Positions 5,583 through 28,317 of a DNA stretch of 64,000 bases are shown here, piece after piece (within the stretch, counting starts at the first letter, position 1; each line of letters starts with the position of its first letter). The notes beneath the pieces were generated by a model that was given only the letters and a program-made list of their open reading frames with translations, was not told the origin of the DNA and did no database searches. The translations under genes and the position numbers were made by a program. Source of the DNA: Sphingomicrobium sp. (lineage in GTDB: Bacteria; Pseudomonadota; Alphaproteobacteria; Sphingomonadales; Sphingomonadaceae); contig DASSOE010000111.1 in assembly GCA_035700945.1 (NCBI GenBank), positions 16,603 to 80,602 on the forward strand, written 5' to 3'.

Positions 5583-6830
5583 ATGAGCACGCGCGGCGAG
5601 CATCTGGTGCGCGCGGACCGGCGGTTCGCCACCGGCGGCGGCCTGGTTGCGCGCCTCAGCGCGCCGGCGATCACGCGCGTGCTCGACCAGATCGACCGGC
5701 GACTTGAATGCGGCGGGCTCGAGACGATGCTCCCGGACGGGTCGAAGCGTCGCCTCGGCTTCCGCGCCAGGGGAGCCCATGCGGTCGTCCACATCTCGAG
5801 GTGGATGGCGCTCGTGCGGCTCGCGACCTCCGGCTCGGTCGGCTGGTACAAGGCGTGGGCACTCGGTGAGTGGTCGAGCCCAGATCCGGTCGCGCTGTTC
5901 GAAATCTTCTCTGCGAATGCAGCGCCGCTTGGCGACATCGGCCGTGCGAAAGGGGCGTTCCGCTGGGTCAACGCGCTCGCGCACCGGATGCGCGACAACG
6001 CCCCGCGCAAGGCGCGGCAGAACATCGCCGCCCATTACGACCTCGGCAATGACTTCTATTCCGCCTGGCTCGATGCGACCATGACCTACAGCTCGGCGCG
6101 CTTTGCGAGCCCCGACGACGGGCTGGAAGCCGCACAGCTGCGCAAGATCCACACGCTCCTCGACCGCGTCGATCTCAGGCCTGGCCACCGGCTGCTGGAC
6201 ATCGGCTGCGGCTGGGGGACGCTGGCGATCGAGGCTGCCAGGCGCGGCGCGTCGGTGGTCGGCCTCACGCTTTCCGCGGAGCAAAAGGCATGGGCGGAGC
6301 GCAAGATCGGCGAAGCGGGCCTGAGCGGCCAAATCGAAATCCGCCTCCAGGATTATCGCGACACCGCCGAGCAGTTCGACGCGGTCGCATCGGTCGAAAT
6401 GGTCGAAGCCGTCGGACAGCGCTGGTGGGGTGCCTATCTCGACAGTATCGCGCGCAATCTCAAAAGCGGCGGCCGCGCCGCGCTGCAGTTCATCAGCATC
6501 CGCCATCACATGTTCGAGGGCTACGCCCGCAACGCCGATTTCATCCAGACCTACATCTTCCCCGGTGGCTGCCTGCTCGACGAACCGCAGTTCGCCGGGC
6601 TGGCGAGCGAGCGGGGTCTGTCCTGGGAGGATCGCGACGGGTTCGGCCGCGATTATGCCGAGACGCTGAAGCTCTGGCGCGAGCGCTACAATCAGGCGGT
6701 TGCGCGCGGCGCGCTGAAAGGCTTCGCTGAGCCCTTCCACGACCTGTGGCGCTATTATCTCATGTATTGCGAAGGCGGCTTTCGCGGGGGCGCGATCGAC
6801 GTCGCCCAGGTGACGATGATCAGGAGCTAG
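5583..6830 (+). CDS. cfa: cyclopropane-fatty-acyl-phospholipid synthase family methyltransferase
   Basis: HYDLGNDFY, MTYSSA, LDIGCGWG, SVEMVEAVG, YIFPGG, WRYYLMYCEGGF. Confidence 0.85.
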   Translation: MSTRGEHLVRADRRFATGGGLVARLSAPAITRVLDQIDRRLECGGLETMLPDGSKRRLGFRARGAHAVVHISRWMALVRLATSGSVGWYKAWALGEWSSPDPVALFEIFSANAAPLGDIGRAKGAFRWVNALAHRMRDNAPRKARQNIAAHYDLGNDFYSAWLDATMTYSSARFASPDDGLEAAQLRKIHTLLDRVDLRPGHRLLDIGCGWGTLAIEAARRGASVVGLTLSAEQKAWAERKIGEAGLSGQIEIRLQDYRDTAEQFDAVASVEMVEAVGQRWWGAYLDSIARNLKSGGRAALQFISIRHHMFEGYARNADFIQTYIFPGGCLLDEPQFAGLASERGLSWEDRDGFGRDYAETLKLWRERYNQAVARGALKGFAEPFHDLWRYYLMYCEGGFRGGAIDVAQVTMIRS

Positions 6831-7530
6831 CGTCGCGCCCGGGCTCGACGTACGACCGCATCACCTGCTCGGTCAGGCGCGCGCAGTCGGCGCCTGCGAA
6901 CGGGAAGGTGCCGGTCAGCGCCGAGCGCACTTCGGGCGCGAGCGCCTGCTGCAGCTTCTTTCGGGCACGCATCAGCCGTGTCTTCACCGTGCCGGTGGGG
7001 ATATCGAGTGTGTATGCCGTATCCTCGACCGACACGCCCTCGATCTCGTGGAGCACGAACACCGTCCTGAAGCTTTCCGGCAAAGCGCCGATTGCCCGCT
7101 CGAGGATCGACCGCAGTTGCTCGCGCGCCGCTTCCGCTTCCGGGCTCGGCGCCTGCGATCCCTTGGCCAACTGCTCACGGTAGGTTTCAAGCATCTGTAC
7201 TCCTTCCGCTTCGAGATGCTTGCGCCGCCGCTCCCGGACGCGCCGCCGCGCCAGCGCTTCGTTGATCGTGATGCGAGTCAGCCAGGTGGTGAGCGTCGAC
7301 CGCGCTTCGAAGGAGCCGATCGCGCGCAGCGCGCTGGCATAAGCGGATTGCAGCACGTCCTCCGCTTCCTGCCGGTTCTTGAGGATGCTCCACGCCGTGC
7401 GAAACAGGCGCTGGTTGTTGGCGGTGACCAGGTGCCGCACGGCTTCGCCATCCCCCGCGGCGCAGCAGCGCGCCAGATCGGCGTCGCTCATGCCAGCATA
7501 ATCGAGCGCAAGTGGCCGCTTCGTGCTCAT
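6820..7530 (-). CDS. ECF RNA polymerase sigma factor with short Cys-containing C-terminal extension (ECF29-like)
   Basis: AEDVLQ, TWLTRITINEAL, region 4 GTVKTRLMRAR, tail FPFAGADCARL; ATG 7530 overlaps cupredoxin stop (ATGA). Confidence 0.85.
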   Translation of the reverse strand: MSTKRPLALDYAGMSDADLARCCAAGDGEAVRHLVTANNQRLFRTAWSILKNRQEAEDVLQSAYASALRAIGSFEARSTLTTWLTRITINEALARRRVRERRRKHLEAEGVQMLETYREQLAKGSQAPSPEAEAAREQLRSILERAIGALPESFRTVFVLHEIEGVSVEDTAYTLDIPTGTVKTRLMRARKKLQQALAPEVRSALTGTFPFAGADCARLTEQVMRSYVEPGRDASS

Positions 7531-7856
7531 TTCGCGATCATACTCCCACGCATTCCTGGATGATACTTGCAGTAAAAGTCCGCCTTGCCGGCGGAGTTGA
7601 CCGTCAGACTGCCCTTCGCGCCCGGCATCAAGTCCAGATTGAAGCGGTTCTTCGTCTCGGTGACCGTGTGCCGGAACATGTCCCTGTTGAGGAACACCAC
7701 GGTGTCGCCGACCTTCAGCGGCGGCACCGGTGCATATTTCATCTTGTCGATCACCACTACGTGCGTAGCGGCTGCTGCCGGCATCGGGGGGGCAACCGGC
7801 AGCAGCGCGCCGACGACCACGGCGCACAGGGGTAGACGCCGCGGGAACAACCTCAT
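7527..7856 (-). CDS. secreted cupredoxin (plastocyanin/azurin family)
   Basis: Signal peptide; type-1 Cu ligands H in FRHTVT and C-x2-H-x2-M in CKYHPGM. Confidence 0.85.
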   Translation of the reverse strand: MRLFPRRLPLCAVVVGALLPVAPPMPAAAATHVVVIDKMKYAPVPPLKVGDTVVFLNRDMFRHTVTETKNRFNLDLMPGAKGSLTVNSAGKADFYCKYHPGMRGSMIAK

Positions 7857-24768: not shown

Positions 24769-26355
24769 TCAGGGGCGGCGGAAGTCCGGCACGGTGCCGC
24801 TTTCCTGCCAATATTGCTCGAGGCCTATGCGTTGGAGCAGCTGCGCGAAACGCGGGTCGGTCCAGGCCTTTCGCATCGAGGGCAGGAATAGCTGGCTGGT
24901 TGCGCGGTCCTCGTCGCCGGCCTCGGGTGCGACATTGTTCCACTCGCCCTCGCGGAAATAGTAACCCTGCAGGATCTCGAAGCTCGTGTTGAGGTCACCG
25001 ACGGCAGCAGCGGCCTGGGCCACGGCCAGGCCCTCAGACGGATGTGACTTCAGATAGTCGAGACTGCGGTTCACTGCCCCGCTCGGGCTGCCTCGCGCCG
25101 CCAGCGCTCGCCCGGTCGCATCGATGGCTTTCACCAGCTCCGCGGACGTGCCGGTTGGCCGTTCCGCCTCGTTCCCGAGGATCGCAAGCGCATCCAGAGG
25201 CCGTCCGCTGTACATCAGATACTCGAGCCGGGTCCGCCATACCTGCGGCTGCTGCGGCCAGTGATCGACGGCCTGCTTGAGCGCCTCGTCGGCGGCTTGG
25301 AGGTCCCCCGCCGCCCACAGGTCGACGACAATCCTGCGATCTGCACCCGGGATGATGAAATGCTTGCGGTCGGCCATGGCCGAAACCGCTGCTGCCTCCT
25401 TCCAGCGGCCGACGCTGCCCAGGGTCTCGGAGAGCAGGAACTGGAGGAGCGGCACGGGCCTCGAATTCTTGAGCGCAGCGCGATCGGCCCGCTCGGCGGC
25501 GAGCCAATGACGATACAACGGGTCGAGGAGGAGCAGCGCCGAGGTTGCACGGGGCTCACCCGGCTCGAGCTTGAATGCCCGCGCAGCGGCCGACCGGCTG
25601 CGCGAGTCCAGTCCGGGTCTTTGCGAAACCGGCGACACGCGCTTCAAACCCGCGTAGGCAAGCGCGAGCGAGCCCCAGGCCTTGGCATAATGTGGATCGG
25701 CCTGTGTCGCTTCCGTCAGCAGCGCGATCGCATTGGCGAGCGACCCCGGATTGTCCGCGGCGAAGACGTCGTTGTTTTGAAGCGCGTCGGTGCCCTTTTG
25801 AAACAGGAGCGCGGCTTGGGAGTTGGGCTGATGCTCGCGTTCGCCGCGCAGCCACAAGGCTCCTGCGGCGGCCGCGACTACCGCCGCTCCTGCCCCGATG
25901 AACAGGGTGCGCCGGGTCGTGCCGCGTTCCTGCGTCAACGACGTTCGACCCTCATCGTGCCGCTCGCCGGCGACGAGCGCATCGATGCTTTTGCGGGCCT
26001 GCGACCAGCCGGCGTGGCGCCGGGCACCGCGCCAGCCGCGAAAGTCAGCGCACTGGATCTGGTCGAAGGGCATCGGCAGGCGGGCGCCGTCGAGCCGCGC
26101 CTGGACGAGCTTGTGCAATTCGCGGGCACGGTTCGCCTCCGACCGCACCCATTCCGAGCCCGCCGCCGCCTCGGACCACAGGACAAGCACCGCCGGCGCG
26201 GATTCGAGCTCGCTCGCAATCACGTCGGCATAGGCTCGGTGGGCGGGAAGATCGCGGTCGTACCAGACCGACCAGCCCGCTTTGCCGAGCTCGCGCGCAA
26301 TGCGCTCCGCCGCAGCGGCGTCGGGCCTCGCGTAGGAGAGGAAGACGTCGGCCAA
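24769..26355 (-). CDS. TIR domain - TM - TPR-like helical repeat protein
   Basis: TTG start 26355; DVFLSY, WYDRDL, SEWVRSEA (TIR Glu); TM RRTLFIGAGAAVVAAAAGALWL; helical repeats DPHYAKAWGSLA. Confidence 0.8.
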   Translation of the reverse strand: MADVFLSYARPDAAAAERIARELGKAGWSVWYDRDLPAHRAYADVIASELESAPAVLVLWSEAAAGSEWVRSEANRARELHKLVQARLDGARLPMPFDQIQCADFRGWRGARRHAGWSQARKSIDALVAGERHDEGRTSLTQERGTTRRTLFIGAGAAVVAAAAGALWLRGEREHQPNSQAALLFQKGTDALQNNDVFAADNPGSLANAIALLTEATQADPHYAKAWGSLALAYAGLKRVSPVSQRPGLDSRSRSAAARAFKLEPGEPRATSALLLLDPLYRHWLAAERADRAALKNSRPVPLLQFLLSETLGSVGRWKEAAAVSAMADRKHFIIPGADRRIVVDLWAAGDLQAADEALKQAVDHWPQQPQVWRTRLEYLMYSGRPLDALAILGNEAERPTGTSAELVKAIDATGRALAARGSPSGAVNRSLDYLKSHPSEGLAVAQAAAAVGDLNTSFEILQGYYFREGEWNNVAPEAGDEDRATSQLFLPSMRKAWTDPRFAQLLQRIGLEQYWQESGTVPDFRRP

Positions 26356-26422
26356 GCACGCACCCCCGAATGCGCCCTTGTACCGCTTGCGAAGCGTCCC
26401 GGCGAGGCTAGGTTGCGCAGCG

Positions 26423-27802
26423 ATGCCCAAGCCCAAATCCCGATACGTGTGCCAGGCATGCGGCTCCGTCAGCAGCCGCTGGCAGGGTCAATGCCCCGAC
26501 TGCGCCGAATGGAACACGCTGGTGCAGGAAGCGGCGGAAGTGTCGAGCATCTTCGCGGCGAAGCACAATTTGCAGGGAGGCGGCCGGGTAATCCCGCTGG
26601 TCGGGCTGGAAACGCCGGCGACGCTGCCCGAGCGATTGCCCAGCGGGATCGCCGAGTTCGACCGCGCGATCGGCGGCGGGATCGTCGCGGGGTCGGCCAT
26701 GCTTGTCGGCGGCGATCCGGGGATCGGCAAGTCGACGCTTCTGCTCCAGGTCGCCGCGCGTCTGGCGAGCGAGGGCAACAAGGTCGTCTACGTCTCCGGC
26801 GAGGAATCGGCGGAGCAGGTGCGGTTGCGGGCGGTGCGGCTCGGGCTCGGGGCTGCGCCGGTGCGGCTCGCGGCCGCGACATCGGTTCGTGACATCCTGA
26901 CCACGATGGGCGCCAATGAACCGGGGGGCGAGCCGCCGGCGCTGCTCGTGATCGACTCCATCCAGACCATGCATTCCGACCTGATCGAGGGAGCGCCCGG
27001 CACAGTCAGCCAGGTCCGCGCCTCGGCGCAGGAACTGGTGCGCTTTGCGAAGGAGCATGGCACCGCCGTCGTCCTCGTCGGCCATGTCACCAAAGACGGC
27101 ACCATCGCCGGGCCGCGCGTGCTCGAGCATATGGTCGACACGGTGCTGAGCTTCGAAGGAGAGCGCAGCCACCAGTACCGGATCCTGCGCGCGATGAAGA
27201 ACCGCTTCGGCGGAACCGACGAGATCGGCGTGTTCGCGATGGAGGGCGCCGGGCTGAGCGAAGTGCCAAATCCGTCGGCGCTGTTCCTCACCCACCGCGG
27301 TGAGCCGGTCAGCGGGACGAGCGTGTTCCCGGCGATGGAAGGCACGCGTCCGGTGCTGGTCGAAATCCAGGCGCTGGTGGTGCGGCTGGCGACCGGAGCG
27401 ACTCCGCGGCGGGCTGCGGTCGGCTGGGACAGCGGCCGGCTGGCGATGGTCCTCGCGGTGCTGGAGGCACGCTGCGGCCTCAGCTTCGCGACCGCGGAAG
27501 TCTATCTGAACGTCGCCGGCGGGTATCGCCTGAGCGACCCCGCTGCGGACCTGGCAGTCGCGGCGGCACTGGTGTCGGCCCTGTCCGAGCGGCCGGTGCC
27601 GAGCGACGTCGTGGTCCTCGGCGAGATCGCTTTGTCCGGCGAAATCCGGCCGGTGGCACACGCCGGCTTGCGGCTGAAGGAGGCAGCCAAGCTCGGCTTC
27701 GACGCCGGCTGGGTGCCGAAGGACATCAAGGGCGGCGAGGGACTGAGGCTCGCCGAATTTGCGAGCCTGCGCCAGCTCGTCGAACAGCTGCTTGGCAGGT
27801 AG
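26423..27802 (+). CDS. radA: DNA repair protein RadA/Sms
   Basis: Zn finger CQAC...CPDC, Walker A GDPGIGKST, KNRFG, Lon-like C-terminus. Confidence 0.97.
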   Translation: MPKPKSRYVCQACGSVSSRWQGQCPDCAEWNTLVQEAAEVSSIFAAKHNLQGGGRVIPLVGLETPATLPERLPSGIAEFDRAIGGGIVAGSAMLVGGDPGIGKSTLLLQVAARLASEGNKVVYVSGEESAEQVRLRAVRLGLGAAPVRLAAATSVRDILTTMGANEPGGEPPALLVIDSIQTMHSDLIEGAPGTVSQVRASAQELVRFAKEHGTAVVLVGHVTKDGTIAGPRVLEHMVDTVLSFEGERSHQYRILRAMKNRFGGTDEIGVFAMEGAGLSEVPNPSALFLTHRGEPVSGTSVFPAMEGTRPVLVEIQALVVRLATGATPRRAAVGWDSGRLAMVLAVLEARCGLSFATAEVYLNVAGGYRLSDPAADLAVAAALVSALSERPVPSDVVVLGEIALSGEIRPVAHAGLRLKEAAKLGFDAGWVPKDIKGGEGLRLAEFASLRQLVEQLLGR

Positions 27803-27857: not shown

Positions 27858-28040
27858 ATGACCGCAAAGCCCAGGAGCCGCGACCAAATGACCGACGAGG
27901 AGCGGGCAATCTGGGCCAAGTTCGATGCTGAAATCCAAAAAGGCATCGACGACATGGAGGCCGGGCGGCTCAAGAACGCTGACGAGGTGTTCGATCGTCT
28001 CGAAGCGAAGTACGCGGCAATGGCACAGCGCCGCGGGTGA
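27858..28040 (+). CDS. ParD-like antitoxin, apparently lacking the N-terminal DNA-binding domain
   Basis: EIQKGIDDMEAGR...DEVFDRLEAKY; stop overlaps the following GTG. Confidence 0.6.
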   Translation: MTAKPRSRDQMTDEERAIWAKFDAEIQKGIDDMEAGRLKNADEVFDRLEAKYAAMAQRRG

Positions 28041-28317
28041 GGGTTCGCCTCACCGCGTCGGCCGAAGCCGATCTCGAGCACATTTCAGATTATCTTGCTC
28101 AAATTGATCCGGAACGGGCGCGACTCACTGTCAGAGCATTGCGAGCAGCGACGAGGTGAGTGGGAGCGCTCCCGCGTGCATCTCGGCTGTTTTGACCTCG
28201 CCCGGTGTTCGGAAGAAGTCGGTCTCTCCCTATGTGGTGCTCTACGCAATCGTCGCAGACGAGGTCCGAGTGCTGCGCATCGCTCATGAGCGCAGCGATT
28301 GGGCATCGCTCGTCTGA
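28037..28317 (+). pseudogene. ParE/RelE-family toxin, disrupted
   Basis: MRVRLTASAEADLEHISDY... stops at TGA 28157-28159; the C-terminal half PGVRKK...YVVLY...LRIAHERSDW lies in another frame ending 28317. Confidence 0.7.

Follow-up and report, generated by a model that had tools for sequence, protein, structure and literature searches.

The gene at positions 24,769 to 26,355 of the window, by which we mean the whole 64,000-nucleotide stretch of DNA analysed, encodes a protein that is best explained as a single-pass inner-membrane one-component receptor. According to this explanation, to which we assign a probability of roughly 0.55, clustering of a periplasmic sensor would assemble the cytoplasmic TIR domains and thereby lead to the cleavage of NAD+. 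The features of the gene are collected in Table 1.

Table 1. Features of the TIR gene and its divergent neighbour, in window coordinates.
Feature	Position	Strand	Basis
Whole gene, 528-aa TIR / RR-anchored TM / TPR-like protein	24769..26355	(-)	TTG start at 26355; stop included
Predicted cytoplasmic TIR domain, residues 1-136: flavodoxin-like core and long last helix 115-136	25948..26355	(-)	Pfam TIR_2, AF2, Foldseek
Glu73 codon, catalytic position of NADase TIRs; motif S67-x-W69-V-R-S-E73	26137..26139	(-)	alignment and conservation
Variable low-confidence linker, residues 137-147	25915..25947	(-)	conservation 0.47; low pLDDT
Invariant twin arginine R148-R149 in motif [S/T/D/N]-R-R-x-[L/V]-L-x-G	25909..25914	(-)	109/109 orthologues
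Single Ala/Gly-rich hydrophobic helix, residues 151-169, putative membrane anchor	25849..25905	(-)	hydropathy and conservation
Predicted extracytoplasmic TPR-like helical solenoid, residues 176-528, sensor module	24772..25830	(-)	Pfam, AF2, Foldseek
C-terminal module signature T486..LF.P....DPRF..L..R.GL..YW...G..PDFR	24778..24900	(-)	near-invariant columns
radA, divergent, context only	26423..27802	(+)	ATG at 26423, 67 bp from gene

The open reading frame 24769..26436 on the minus strand is open throughout, and the in-frame TTG start is preceded by GGGGG. The product starts with MADVFLSY, and its N-terminus and length agree with those of more than 100 homologues (about 525–530 aa), which supports the start at 26355 given in the initial annotation. 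As the whole architecture is conserved at 55–90% identity in more than 100 cluster representatives, the TIR, twin-arginine, TM and TPR features are not a product of chance. Judged by its sequence, the gene codes for a genuine bacterial membrane protein of 528 residues, with the placement in the membrane being predicted. The promoter and terminator scan of the locus gave nothing informative.

The N-terminal domain was identified as a TIR domain by both sequence and structure. Residues 4–108 match Pfam TIR_2 (PF13676) with 73.4 bits (E 3e-20), well over the curated cut-off of 28 bits, and the AF2 model of the TIR domain alone has a pLDDT of 93.7. Foldseek placed this model in the TIR (flavodoxin-like) fold with TM scores of 0.64–0.79 to the TIR structures of SARM1, SPARTA, AbTir and MyD88, at only 15–23% sequence identity between this TIR and the solved TIR domains, and the scaffold TIRs (MyD88, TLR1/2/6/10) were matched about as well as the enzyme TIRs. 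The Glu of S-E-W-V-R-S-E-A is Glu73, whose codon position was verified. In the alignment, Glu73 falls exactly in the column where the RUN1 chains 7s2z and 6o0w (wild type) differ, which we take to be that of the catalytic Glu of RUN1, and it is also aligned to the Glu of PdTIR. Both Glu73 and its S-x-W-V-x-x-E context are invariant in the orthologues (109/109) and in the genomic paralogues (20/20), and among the 109 orthologues the TIR domain has the highest mean column conservation (0.82; sensor 0.70, linker 0.47). The proposal that the EWVRSEA motif carries the catalytic-position Glu was thus borne out. A Glu at this position marks NADase TIR domains and is not known to be retained in the scaffold TIRs of TLR and MyD88; to our knowledge, all bacterial TIRs characterised to date that retain it are enzymes. 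The TIR domain is therefore probably an NAD-cleaving domain, as far as can be judged from these residues.

The TIR domain and the linker are followed by R148–R149 and the hydrophobic helix LFIGAGAAVVAAAAGALWL (19 residues, Kyte–Doolittle mean 2.07), as the initial annotation had described. The wider wHTH/TIR family conserves the twin arginine to at least 90%, and it was present in 97/99 and 79/80 of the anchors scanned, with K hardly ever in place of R. Trp168, at least 90% conserved, closes the helix at its outer end, and K+R (2.9 before the helix vs 1.9 after it) shows a modest positive-inside bias. The AF2 pLDDT is below 50 over residues 133–171, the hydrophobic helix included. The motif, with the Ala/Gly-rich h-region that follows it, compares with the Tat consensus S/T-R-R-x-F-L-K and is internal, at residue 148, not N-terminal. 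Among ten segments, UCR_Fe-S_N (the Rieske Tat signal) matched five and TAT_signal one, all under the Pfam cut-offs, and no conserved A-x-A cleavage motif was found in the orthologue alignment. TatC was not found in the source assembly, itself 91% complete, and is present in 23 of the 25 genomes of the genus, including those with the orthologue. Taken from its sequence pattern, the juxtamembrane motif resembles an uncleaved Tat signal-anchor.

From these data we infer a topology with the TIR domain inside and the repeats outside. The predicted layout, in which the N-terminal TIR is cytoplasmic and a single membrane pass leads to extracytoplasmic repeats, agrees with that proposed initially. 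It gains strength from the fusion partners of the RR/TM/TPR module, most of which are DNA-binding domains of the CadC/ToxR type and as such must face the cytoplasm. A C-x8-9-C pair occurs at the C-terminus of distant TM-bearing paralogues (C43, C52, C109, C123 and C127), is lacking in the TM-less paralogues, and is absent from the subfamily of the protein itself; being confined to distant paralogues, it gives weak support as a marker of the periplasm.

The C-terminal region of about 350 aa consists of helical repeats, as anticipated: TPR_19 (32.4 bits, cut-off 25) and TPR_14 (25.4 bits, cut-off 23.5) both pass, and AF2 predicts residues 176–528 to be all-helical with a pLDDT of 89, mostly over 90. 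Comparison of the full model with the PDB by Foldseek returned only generic TPR solenoids (Tom71, OGT, consensus-TPR designs and APC6; E 3e-5 to 1e-3) with low TM scores, and therefore the region is a divergent TPR-like domain; the same comparison yielded no clue to a ligand. The C-terminal module is shared by 1521 cluster representatives, and its signature motif is also found in wHTH and TIR paralogues. The output domains were surveyed in the best 150 of these 1521 representatives, 114 of them full-length, and by local jackhmmer with TIR and wHTH probes. A wHTH of CadC/ToxR type is found in 103 of these 114 and a TIR in five, and the other six have BTAD, XRE-HTH or class III cyclase domains, with one cyclase among them. 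Within the source genome, the paralogues C31, C78, C91 and C127 have a wHTH at the N-terminus, where our protein has the TIR, and C31 consists of Trans_reg_C, "TRRTLLVGAAGALAAVGGGAFLY" and the same module, 31% identical over residues 145–527. Since the module is shared across wHTH, TIR and cyclase fusions, it appears to behave as a widespread sensor (input) cassette with TIR as one of several outputs, and the TIR of our protein would occupy the output slot of a ToxR-like receptor.

The divergent orientation relative to radA was confirmed, and the other neighbours are a membrane protein without a family match, a Na+/H+ exchanger, an MFS transporter and cysK; the gene sits among housekeeping genes and not in a defence island. 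The order radA / TIR gene / MFS / cysK is retained in G121 and G141 and in the P0003 contigs. The parDE relic reported nearby was recovered in part: positions 28156–28317 match ParE, only at profile positions 55–89 of 89, and the presumed ParD is a 60-aa ORF with no family match. This relic is incidental, because it is missing from the locus of a 90%-identical relative. All-against-all BLAST of the ORFs lying up to 4 kb from each of the 20 TIR paralogues revealed no conserved partner gene, and the sole recurring "families" were alternative-frame ORFs of tandem TIR genes. The neighbourhoods of the orthologues comprise either the radA/MFS/cysK locus or something unrelated, and the two results together rule out a conserved cassette at this locus. 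Neither SIR2_2 nor Macro, the two effector domains covered by this search, was found anywhere in the genome, so that the canonical Thoeris effectors were discarded. The stand-alone character suggested for the gene is thus supported by its own surroundings, those of its orthologues and 20 paralogues, and the genome-wide lack of SIR2_2 and Macro.

The 2.56-Mb source genome encodes 20–21 TIR proteins; genomes within the genus have between 0 and 21, and 0–3 is usual in the other genera of the family. Ten of the TIR paralogues have TPR repeats and no TM helix. We also observed a short TIR-FHA protein, a TolB-N-like insert in several paralogues, and tandem duplicates among the TIR genes of this genome. 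An orthologue of our gene is present in only 4–5 of 24 congeners, and the possibility that it is a core gene beside radA was rejected, as it is missing there in the two closest congeners (radA identity 90–91%) and in three more distant ones. About 21 NAD+-depleting enzymes per cell look hazardous, which argues for tight control or for a signalling product over depletion.

Based on the receptor explanation, the TIR domain at the N-terminus would remain in the cytoplasm, and the twin arginine and the Ala/Gly-rich helix would fix the protein in the membrane, where they probably act as an uncleaved signal-anchor that Tat may insert, with the 350-residue TPR-like solenoid serving as the input domain in the periplasm. 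A ligand or partner protein that binds in the periplasm may alter the self-association of the sensor, which would bring the cytoplasmic TIRs together. The active site containing Glu73 could then be completed across the TIR–TIR interface, as in SARM1, AbTir and SPARTA, and NAD+ would be cleaved, resulting in lowered NAD+ or in an ADP-ribose-derived signal. Clustering as the mode of activation, an enzymatic output and the kind of cue are all inferred steps. Counting against the receptor model are the Ala/Gly-rich composition and low AF2 confidence of the anchor helix, the modest charge bias around it, the sub-threshold scores of the Tat models and the missing TatC of the source assembly, the hazard of some 21 NAD+-depleting enzymes in one cell, the TM-less TIR-TPR paralogues, which show that repeat modules of this kind can also function in the cytoplasm, and the failure to find a receptor for a TIR-made signal in the search for SIR2_2 and Macro.

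Concerning the structure itself, it is improbable that the hydrophobic stretch forms no stable span, with the whole protein being cytoplasmic or a cleavable Tat signal freeing the TPR part into the periplasm. The composition of the helix, its low model confidence, the ten TM-less paralogues and the likeness of the RR motif and h-region to a Tat signal peptide are in line with this proposal; however, the hydropathy mean over 19 residues exceeds the usual TM threshold, and in place of a conserved A-x-A the outer end has Trp168, as in membrane anchors. Moreover, hundreds of wHTH and TIR relatives retain output, anchor and sensor as one fusion, which would be hard to understand if these parts were separated, and the C-x8-9-C pair of distant TM-bearing paralogues, absent from the subfamily of our protein, fits an oxidising compartment. 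A non-catalytic TIR, acting in assembly or as an adaptor as in animal TLR/MyD88, is somewhat easier to accept and still unlikely. In such a case, the ~21 TIRs would signal by TIR–TIR contacts and without NAD+ turnover, one example being recruitment of the TIR-FHA protein. The presence of many TIR proteins in one cell, a short adaptor-like TIR-FHA protein among them, is compatible with this, as are the nearly equal Foldseek scores for MyD88, TLR1/2/6/10 and the enzymes and the negative search for a receptor or effector of a TIR-made nucleotide, which covered the paralogue neighbourhoods and, for SIR2_2 and Macro, the whole genome. What speaks against an adaptor is the invariance of the Glu and its context in all orthologues and paralogues, since by general family knowledge this Glu goes with enzymes and not with the TLR/MyD88 scaffolds.

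The purpose of the protein is a separate matter, and here an anti-phage role overlaps with the receptor model. As an abortive-infection protein, it would detect a phage protein or envelope damage through the periplasmic TPR part and deplete NAD+ through the TIR domain, so that the infected cell is stopped; it would then be a membrane-spanning cousin of the E. coli single-gene TIR+TPR systems. We regard this role as a tentative possibility, the most credible of the alternatives. The E. coli single-protein systems protect from phages and require their TIR active-site residues (PMC11350192), and a Myxococcus defence island is controlled by the periplasmic TPR-containing sensor DdvA (PMC11506125). 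The variation of TIR copy number from 0 to 21 in one genus, together with tandem duplicates, recalls immune receptor families; in addition, close relatives differ in whether they have the orthologue at this radA junction, and the sensor evolves faster than the TIR. Set against this role are the housekeeping flanks (radA, cysK, MFS and Na+/H+ exchanger) with no defence island, and the PADLOC results, which comprise weak TIR-domain matches and none at the system level. The sensor module occurs for the most part in transcription regulators and once in a cyclase, a distribution in keeping with ordinary environmental sensing, and the TIR-FHA paralogue suggests links to kinase signalling.

A joint reading of these data, which is speculative and which we hold to be a little less probable than the anti-phage role, is a genus-wide TIR network, in which up to ~21 sensor-TIRs feed a common NAD+-derived messenger or build TIR–TIR assemblies with the TIR-FHA adaptor. 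In such a network, membrane-spanning and cytosolic sensor-TIRs would take different periplasmic and cytoplasmic cues, like the many GGDEF sensors feeding c-di-GMP, and the periplasmic sensors might be delivered already folded via the internal uncleaved Tat signal-anchor.

Work on bacterial TIRs has so far centred on cytoplasmic anti-phage enzymes and secreted virulence factors, and our literature search turned up no publication on TIR-TM-TPR proteins or their wHTH-TM-TPR relatives. The significance of the present protein lies in a TIR that appears to take the place of the output domain in a ToxR-like transmembrane sensor, the input module of which otherwise serves DNA-binding or cyclase outputs, and in the growth of the TIR family to ~21 copies in a free-living bacterium with a genome of this size. 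If the TIR is active, the protein would directly couple a cue in the periplasm to NAD+ chemistry on the other side of the membrane and would be, by convergence, a bacterial equivalent of Toll-like receptors. The RR anchor, invariant and internal, would in addition make a natural test case for the Tat insertion of a bitopic protein with a large folded cytoplasmic N-terminal domain. If the network reading is true, TIR would be a general bacterial signal-transduction output, beyond an immune effector alone.

Among known systems, the ToxR-like receptors (CadC, ToxR and TcpP) share the predicted plan of our protein, namely one polypeptide in which a single TM helix links a cytoplasmic output domain at the N-terminus to a periplasmic sensor at the C-terminus, and many wHTH (Trans_reg_C) proteins, some of them paralogues from the source genome, have a module homologous to its RR/TM/TPR part. 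Our protein differs in having a TIR instead of a winged-helix DNA-binding domain as output, in a TPR-like solenoid unrelated to the CadC/ToxR sensor domains, and in the invariant juxtamembrane RR. With the catalytic bacterial TIRs (AbTir, PdTIR, BtpA, SPARTA TIR and ThsB), it has in common the TIR_2 fold and the Glu in S-x-W-x-x-x-E context, and activation through TIR self-association may be expected by analogy; unlike them, its TIR is predicted to be tethered to the membrane and joined to an outside sensor, with no adjacent effector. Membership in Thoeris was rejected, as the ThsB_TIR model gave 15.8 bits, under the cut-off of 21.2, and no effector gene is adjacent; PADLOC gave a ThsB match of E 0.004 only and ThcB4 at 26.8 bits vs a cut-off of 220.

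The E. coli single-gene anti-phage proteins named "TIR-II" also combine TIR and TPR in one protein without a partner, are cytoplasmic as far as described, and carry an ATPase in about 30% of cases (PMC11350192). The likeness is one of domain content, whereas the TM anchor of our protein is predicted to put its repeats outside the cell. As for animal Toll-like receptors, the Toll-receptor-like topology suggested in the initial annotation holds for the repeat solenoid, the TM helix and, by analogy, the cytoplasmic TIR, and fails for the domain order and the type of repeat. A repeat-solenoid ectodomain, one TM helix and a cytoplasmic TIR are likewise predicted for our protein, and both belong to a lineage-specific multigene family, but our protein has the reverse order, with the TIR at the N-terminus and a type II orientation, its ectodomain is TPR with no LRR, and the enzymatic Glu is retained; the likeness to Toll-like receptors is an analogy and not orthology.

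The TIR-transmembrane-TPR protein is encoded in an open reading frame (24769..26436, minus strand) with an in-frame TTG start codon at 26355, 6 bases downstream of a Shine-Dalgarno-like GGGGGT run. Since the N-terminus of the product (MADVFLSY) is shared by one identical 528-aa protein and by over 100 homologues that are 523-535 aa long, the nearest named ones from Sphingomicrobium and Sphingomonas MAGs, the gene coordinates in the initial annotation are right. The gene is real, and the structure proposed for it (a TIR domain, then an RR pair with one hydrophobic helix, then helical repeats) is also right: TIR_2 is followed by R148-R149, one hydrophobic stretch (residues 151-169, LFIGAGAAVVAAAAGALWL; mean Kyte-Doolittle score 2.07), and residues 176-528 that are all helical in the full-length AlphaFold2 model (109-sequence alignment, mean pLDDT 89.2), where low confidence is confined to the linker and helix (residues 133-171). 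Pfam placed TPR_19 and TPR_14 in the C-terminal half, marginally over their cut-offs, and the NCBIfam and PADLOC scans gave only weak, domain-level TIR matches. The features are collected in the table.

Features of the TIR gene, its surroundings and related loci (C numbers, contigs of the same genome; C111 carries the window; G129, a congener)
Feature	Location	Strand	Basis or remark
TIR/RR/TM/TPR-like gene, 528 aa	24769-26355	-	Pfam, AlphaFold2, homologue lengths
Polytopic membrane protein, 404 aa	23497-24711	-	Directly downstream of the TIR gene; no Pfam match
parDE remnant	27858-28317	+	53-aa ORF with the last 35 ParE profile positions only
ParE fragment	28156-28317	+	Profile positions 55-89 of 89
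TIR genes	C65:4307-9638		
TIR gene pair	C111:12796-16327		Just upstream of the window (start C111:16603)
TIR gene location	C111:84667-86502		
TIR gene location	C6:11398-15560		Others elsewhere in the genome
TIR-FHA protein, 323 aa	C153:14535-15536		TIR_2 E 7e-22, FHA E 2e-18
Stretch between Na+/H+ exchanger gene and radA	G129:C97 ~5624-7689		~2 kb; not a TIR orthologue

The protein belongs to the TIR_2 family by profile (residues 4-108, E 3e-20, 73.4 bits vs a cut-off of 28), by fold and by its catalytic-position Glu. Residues 1-138, modelled from an alignment of the 20 genomic TIR paralogues, reached a pLDDT of 93.7, and the best PDB matches of this model were all TIR domains, namely SARM1, the SPARTA TIR-APAZ subunit, AbTir, MyD88 and TLRs (TM 0.64-0.79, identity 15-23%). 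In a sequence alignment to solved structures, the Glu singled out in the initial annotation, Glu73 (S67-E-W-V-R-S-E73), aligned with the Glu of RUN1 (SRWCLDEL) and with that of Paracoccus PdTIR (KEWPQKEL); the RUN1 chain of 7s2z reads SRWCLDAL, its sole change from the wild-type motif falling in this very column. Glu73 is invariant, with S67, W69, V70, R71 and S72, across 109 orthologues (55-90% identity) and is one of only 9 invariant columns among all 20 paralogues. Mean column conservation was highest in the TIR domain (0.82 vs 0.70 in the repeat domain and 0.47 in the linker). As a whole, the TIR domain shows the pattern that would be expected of an enzyme and not of a scaffold.

Despite the hypervariable linker just before it, the R148-R149 pair is invariant in the 109 orthologues, and it is at least 90% conserved over the wider wHTH/TIR family (RR in 97/99 and 79/80 scanned anchors). 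The anchor consensus reads [S/T/D/N]-R-R-x-[L/V]-L-[I/A/V]-G and runs on into an Ala/Gly-rich stretch closed by a conserved Trp; it closely resembles the Tat consensus, in which S/T-R-R-x-F-L-K precedes a weakly hydrophobic h-region. Scanned on their own, 5 of 10 anchors matched the Pfam Rieske uncleaved Tat signal-anchor model (best E 1e-4) and 1 of 10 matched TAT_signal (E 0.009), all below the curated cut-offs. TatC was not found in the 91%-complete assembly, probably owing to an assembly gap; 23 of 25 further genomes of the genus have it, orthologue carriers included. The orthologue alignment contained no conserved A-x-A cleavage motif at the anchor, and the K+R excess N-terminal of the helix was modest (2.9 vs 1.9). 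The segment is likely a signal-anchor, for which, judged from its motif, a Tat route is plausible. Five TM-bearing paralogues (C43, C52, C109, C123 and C127) end in PDFC-x8-9-C, likely a disulfide pair, which is missing from TM-less paralogues and from the query's own subfamily.

The strongest computational support for the transmembrane receptor suggested in the initial annotation came from the C-terminal module. When residues 176-528 were used as a phmmer query on 1.84 billion cluster representatives, 1521 proteins matched at E <= 1e-3, of which 148 reached E <= 1e-30; almost all measure about 500-540 aa and match at roughly residues 180-520. The consensus of these relatives begins with a CadC/OmpR-type winged helix, LEPRVMQVLVALA...GRIVG.DAINRVISR.R.LA...ETI.KVGYRL, followed by RR..L.G..A.......G...W and the module. 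Among the top 150 matches, 114 were full-length, of which 103 carried an N-terminal winged helix (wHTH), 5 a TIR domain and 6 other domains (BTAD/SARP-type, one XRE HTH and one class III nucleotide cyclase); one further TIR match was truncated. A 521-aa paralogue on C31 of the same genome consists of Trans_reg_C (E 9e-9), STRRTLLVGAAGALAAVGGGAFLY and the module, 31% identical to query residues 145-527 and ending in DARFEPLVAEIGLDRYWRESGVQPDYRR; the C78, C91 and C127 proteins resemble it. Together with C133, these loci account for one BTAD-type protein and several wHTH proteins of ToxR/CadC type, all with the RR-anchored TM helix and TPR sensor of the TIR proteins; public sequence data contain more than 1500 cluster representatives of this uncharacterised receptor family. 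Since DNA-binding domains have to lie in the cytoplasm, the module family is predicted to follow the ToxR/CadC plan of output inside, one TM helix and sensor outside; by domain composition, TIR appears to take the place of the wHTH as output in the query. Foldseek with the full model found generic TPR solenoids only (Tom71, TTC7B, OGT, designed consensus TPRs and APC6; E 3e-5 to 1e-3, modest TM scores), which gave no clue to a ligand.

The genome (2.56 Mb, 164 contigs, a sphingomonad) contains 20-21 TIR_2 ORFs, several in tandem, which answers the paralogue count proposed earlier. The query, C43, C52, C109 and C123 are TIR-TM-TPR proteins ending in DPRF...GL..YW...PDF; C44, C56 and two on C6 are TIR-TM-VLPF.NLSGD..YFSDGI-TPR proteins; and ten TM-less proteins have the architecture TIR-CVLPFxNMSGDxEQEYFSDGI-TPR and a length of about 585 aa, some of them forming tandems (three on C65, two on C111). 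From its domains, the TIR-FHA protein could be an adaptor from TIR proteins to Ser/Thr-kinase signalling. Of 120 other genomes sampled from the family, 54 had a TIR_2 match; these usually carried 1-3 and never more than 7, apart from the single same-genus genome in this sample, which had 14; within the genus, the count runs from zero, in one 100%-complete genome, to the 21 found here.

The gene is indeed divergent from radA, the starts lying 67 bp apart. Orthologues lie between radA and MFS/cysK in two other genomes, G121 (55% identity) and G141 (52%), and on metagenomic contigs (90%), while the radA junction lacks one in the two closest congeners (radA 90-91% identity) and three more distant ones; a 57%-identical homologue has an unrelated neighbourhood. 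In G129, the ~2-kb stretch occupies the place of the TIR gene. The orthologue diverges faster than the genes beside it (50-55% identity vs 76-84% for radA and cysK). No gene family recurs beside the 20 TIR paralogues, and SIR2_2 and Macro domains are absent from the whole genome, which extends the earlier remark that no ThsA or cyclase partner is seen in the window. Owing to the missing partner, the patchy orthologue and the 0-21 copies, the protein is considered an autonomous, accessory member of a rapidly expanding and contracting family. As to the parDE relic noted nearby, the ParE fragment was recovered, but the 60-aa ORF upstream of it matched no family. The 90%-identical relative lacks the parDE stretch wholly (radA to the MFS gene ~67 bp) and keeps a 408-aa counterpart of the 404-aa membrane protein, also without a Pfam match; G121 and G141 lack that gene, and the MFS gene directly follows the TIR gene.

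A one-component transmembrane receptor is the reading with the best support. In it, a ligand or partner in the periplasm would alter TPR self-association and thereby bring the tethered cytoplasmic TIR domains together, the Glu73 active site would become competent as in other TIR NADases, and NAD+ would be consumed or turned into a signal. In SARM1, AbTir and SPARTA, TIR sites are completed across TIR-TIR interfaces. The functional reading of the initial annotation, now sharper, is plausible. A TIR domain acting purely as a scaffold is less likely, since the catalytic-position Glu is invariant, and so are repeats that are cytoplasmic or cleaved off, given that the three-part fusion is conserved and the helix has an aromatic cap.

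As to the purpose of such a receptor, some points favour phage defence: single-gene TIR+TPR proteins act in defence in E. coli (PMC11350192), a TPR-containing periplasmic sensor controls a defence island (PMC11506125), and the TIR family has immune-receptor-like copy-number dynamics. Other points favour environmental signalling, namely the housekeeping gene context, the coupling of the same sensor to transcription factors in most cases and to a cyclase in one, and the TIR-FHA paralogue.

No experimental paper on the TIR-TM-TPR architecture was found in our literature searches; new here are the exchange of the wHTH output for TIR, the growth of the TIR set to ~21 proteins and an internal twin-arginine anchor that is invariant. 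Membership in Thoeris was rejected, as the ThsB model scored below its cut-off and neither an adjacent effector gene nor a SIR2_2 or Macro domain was found. The likeness to Toll receptors described earlier is convergent, and the domain order is inverted relative to Toll-like receptors. The predicted working plan is like that of ToxR-like receptors, although the wHTH that defines that family is missing.
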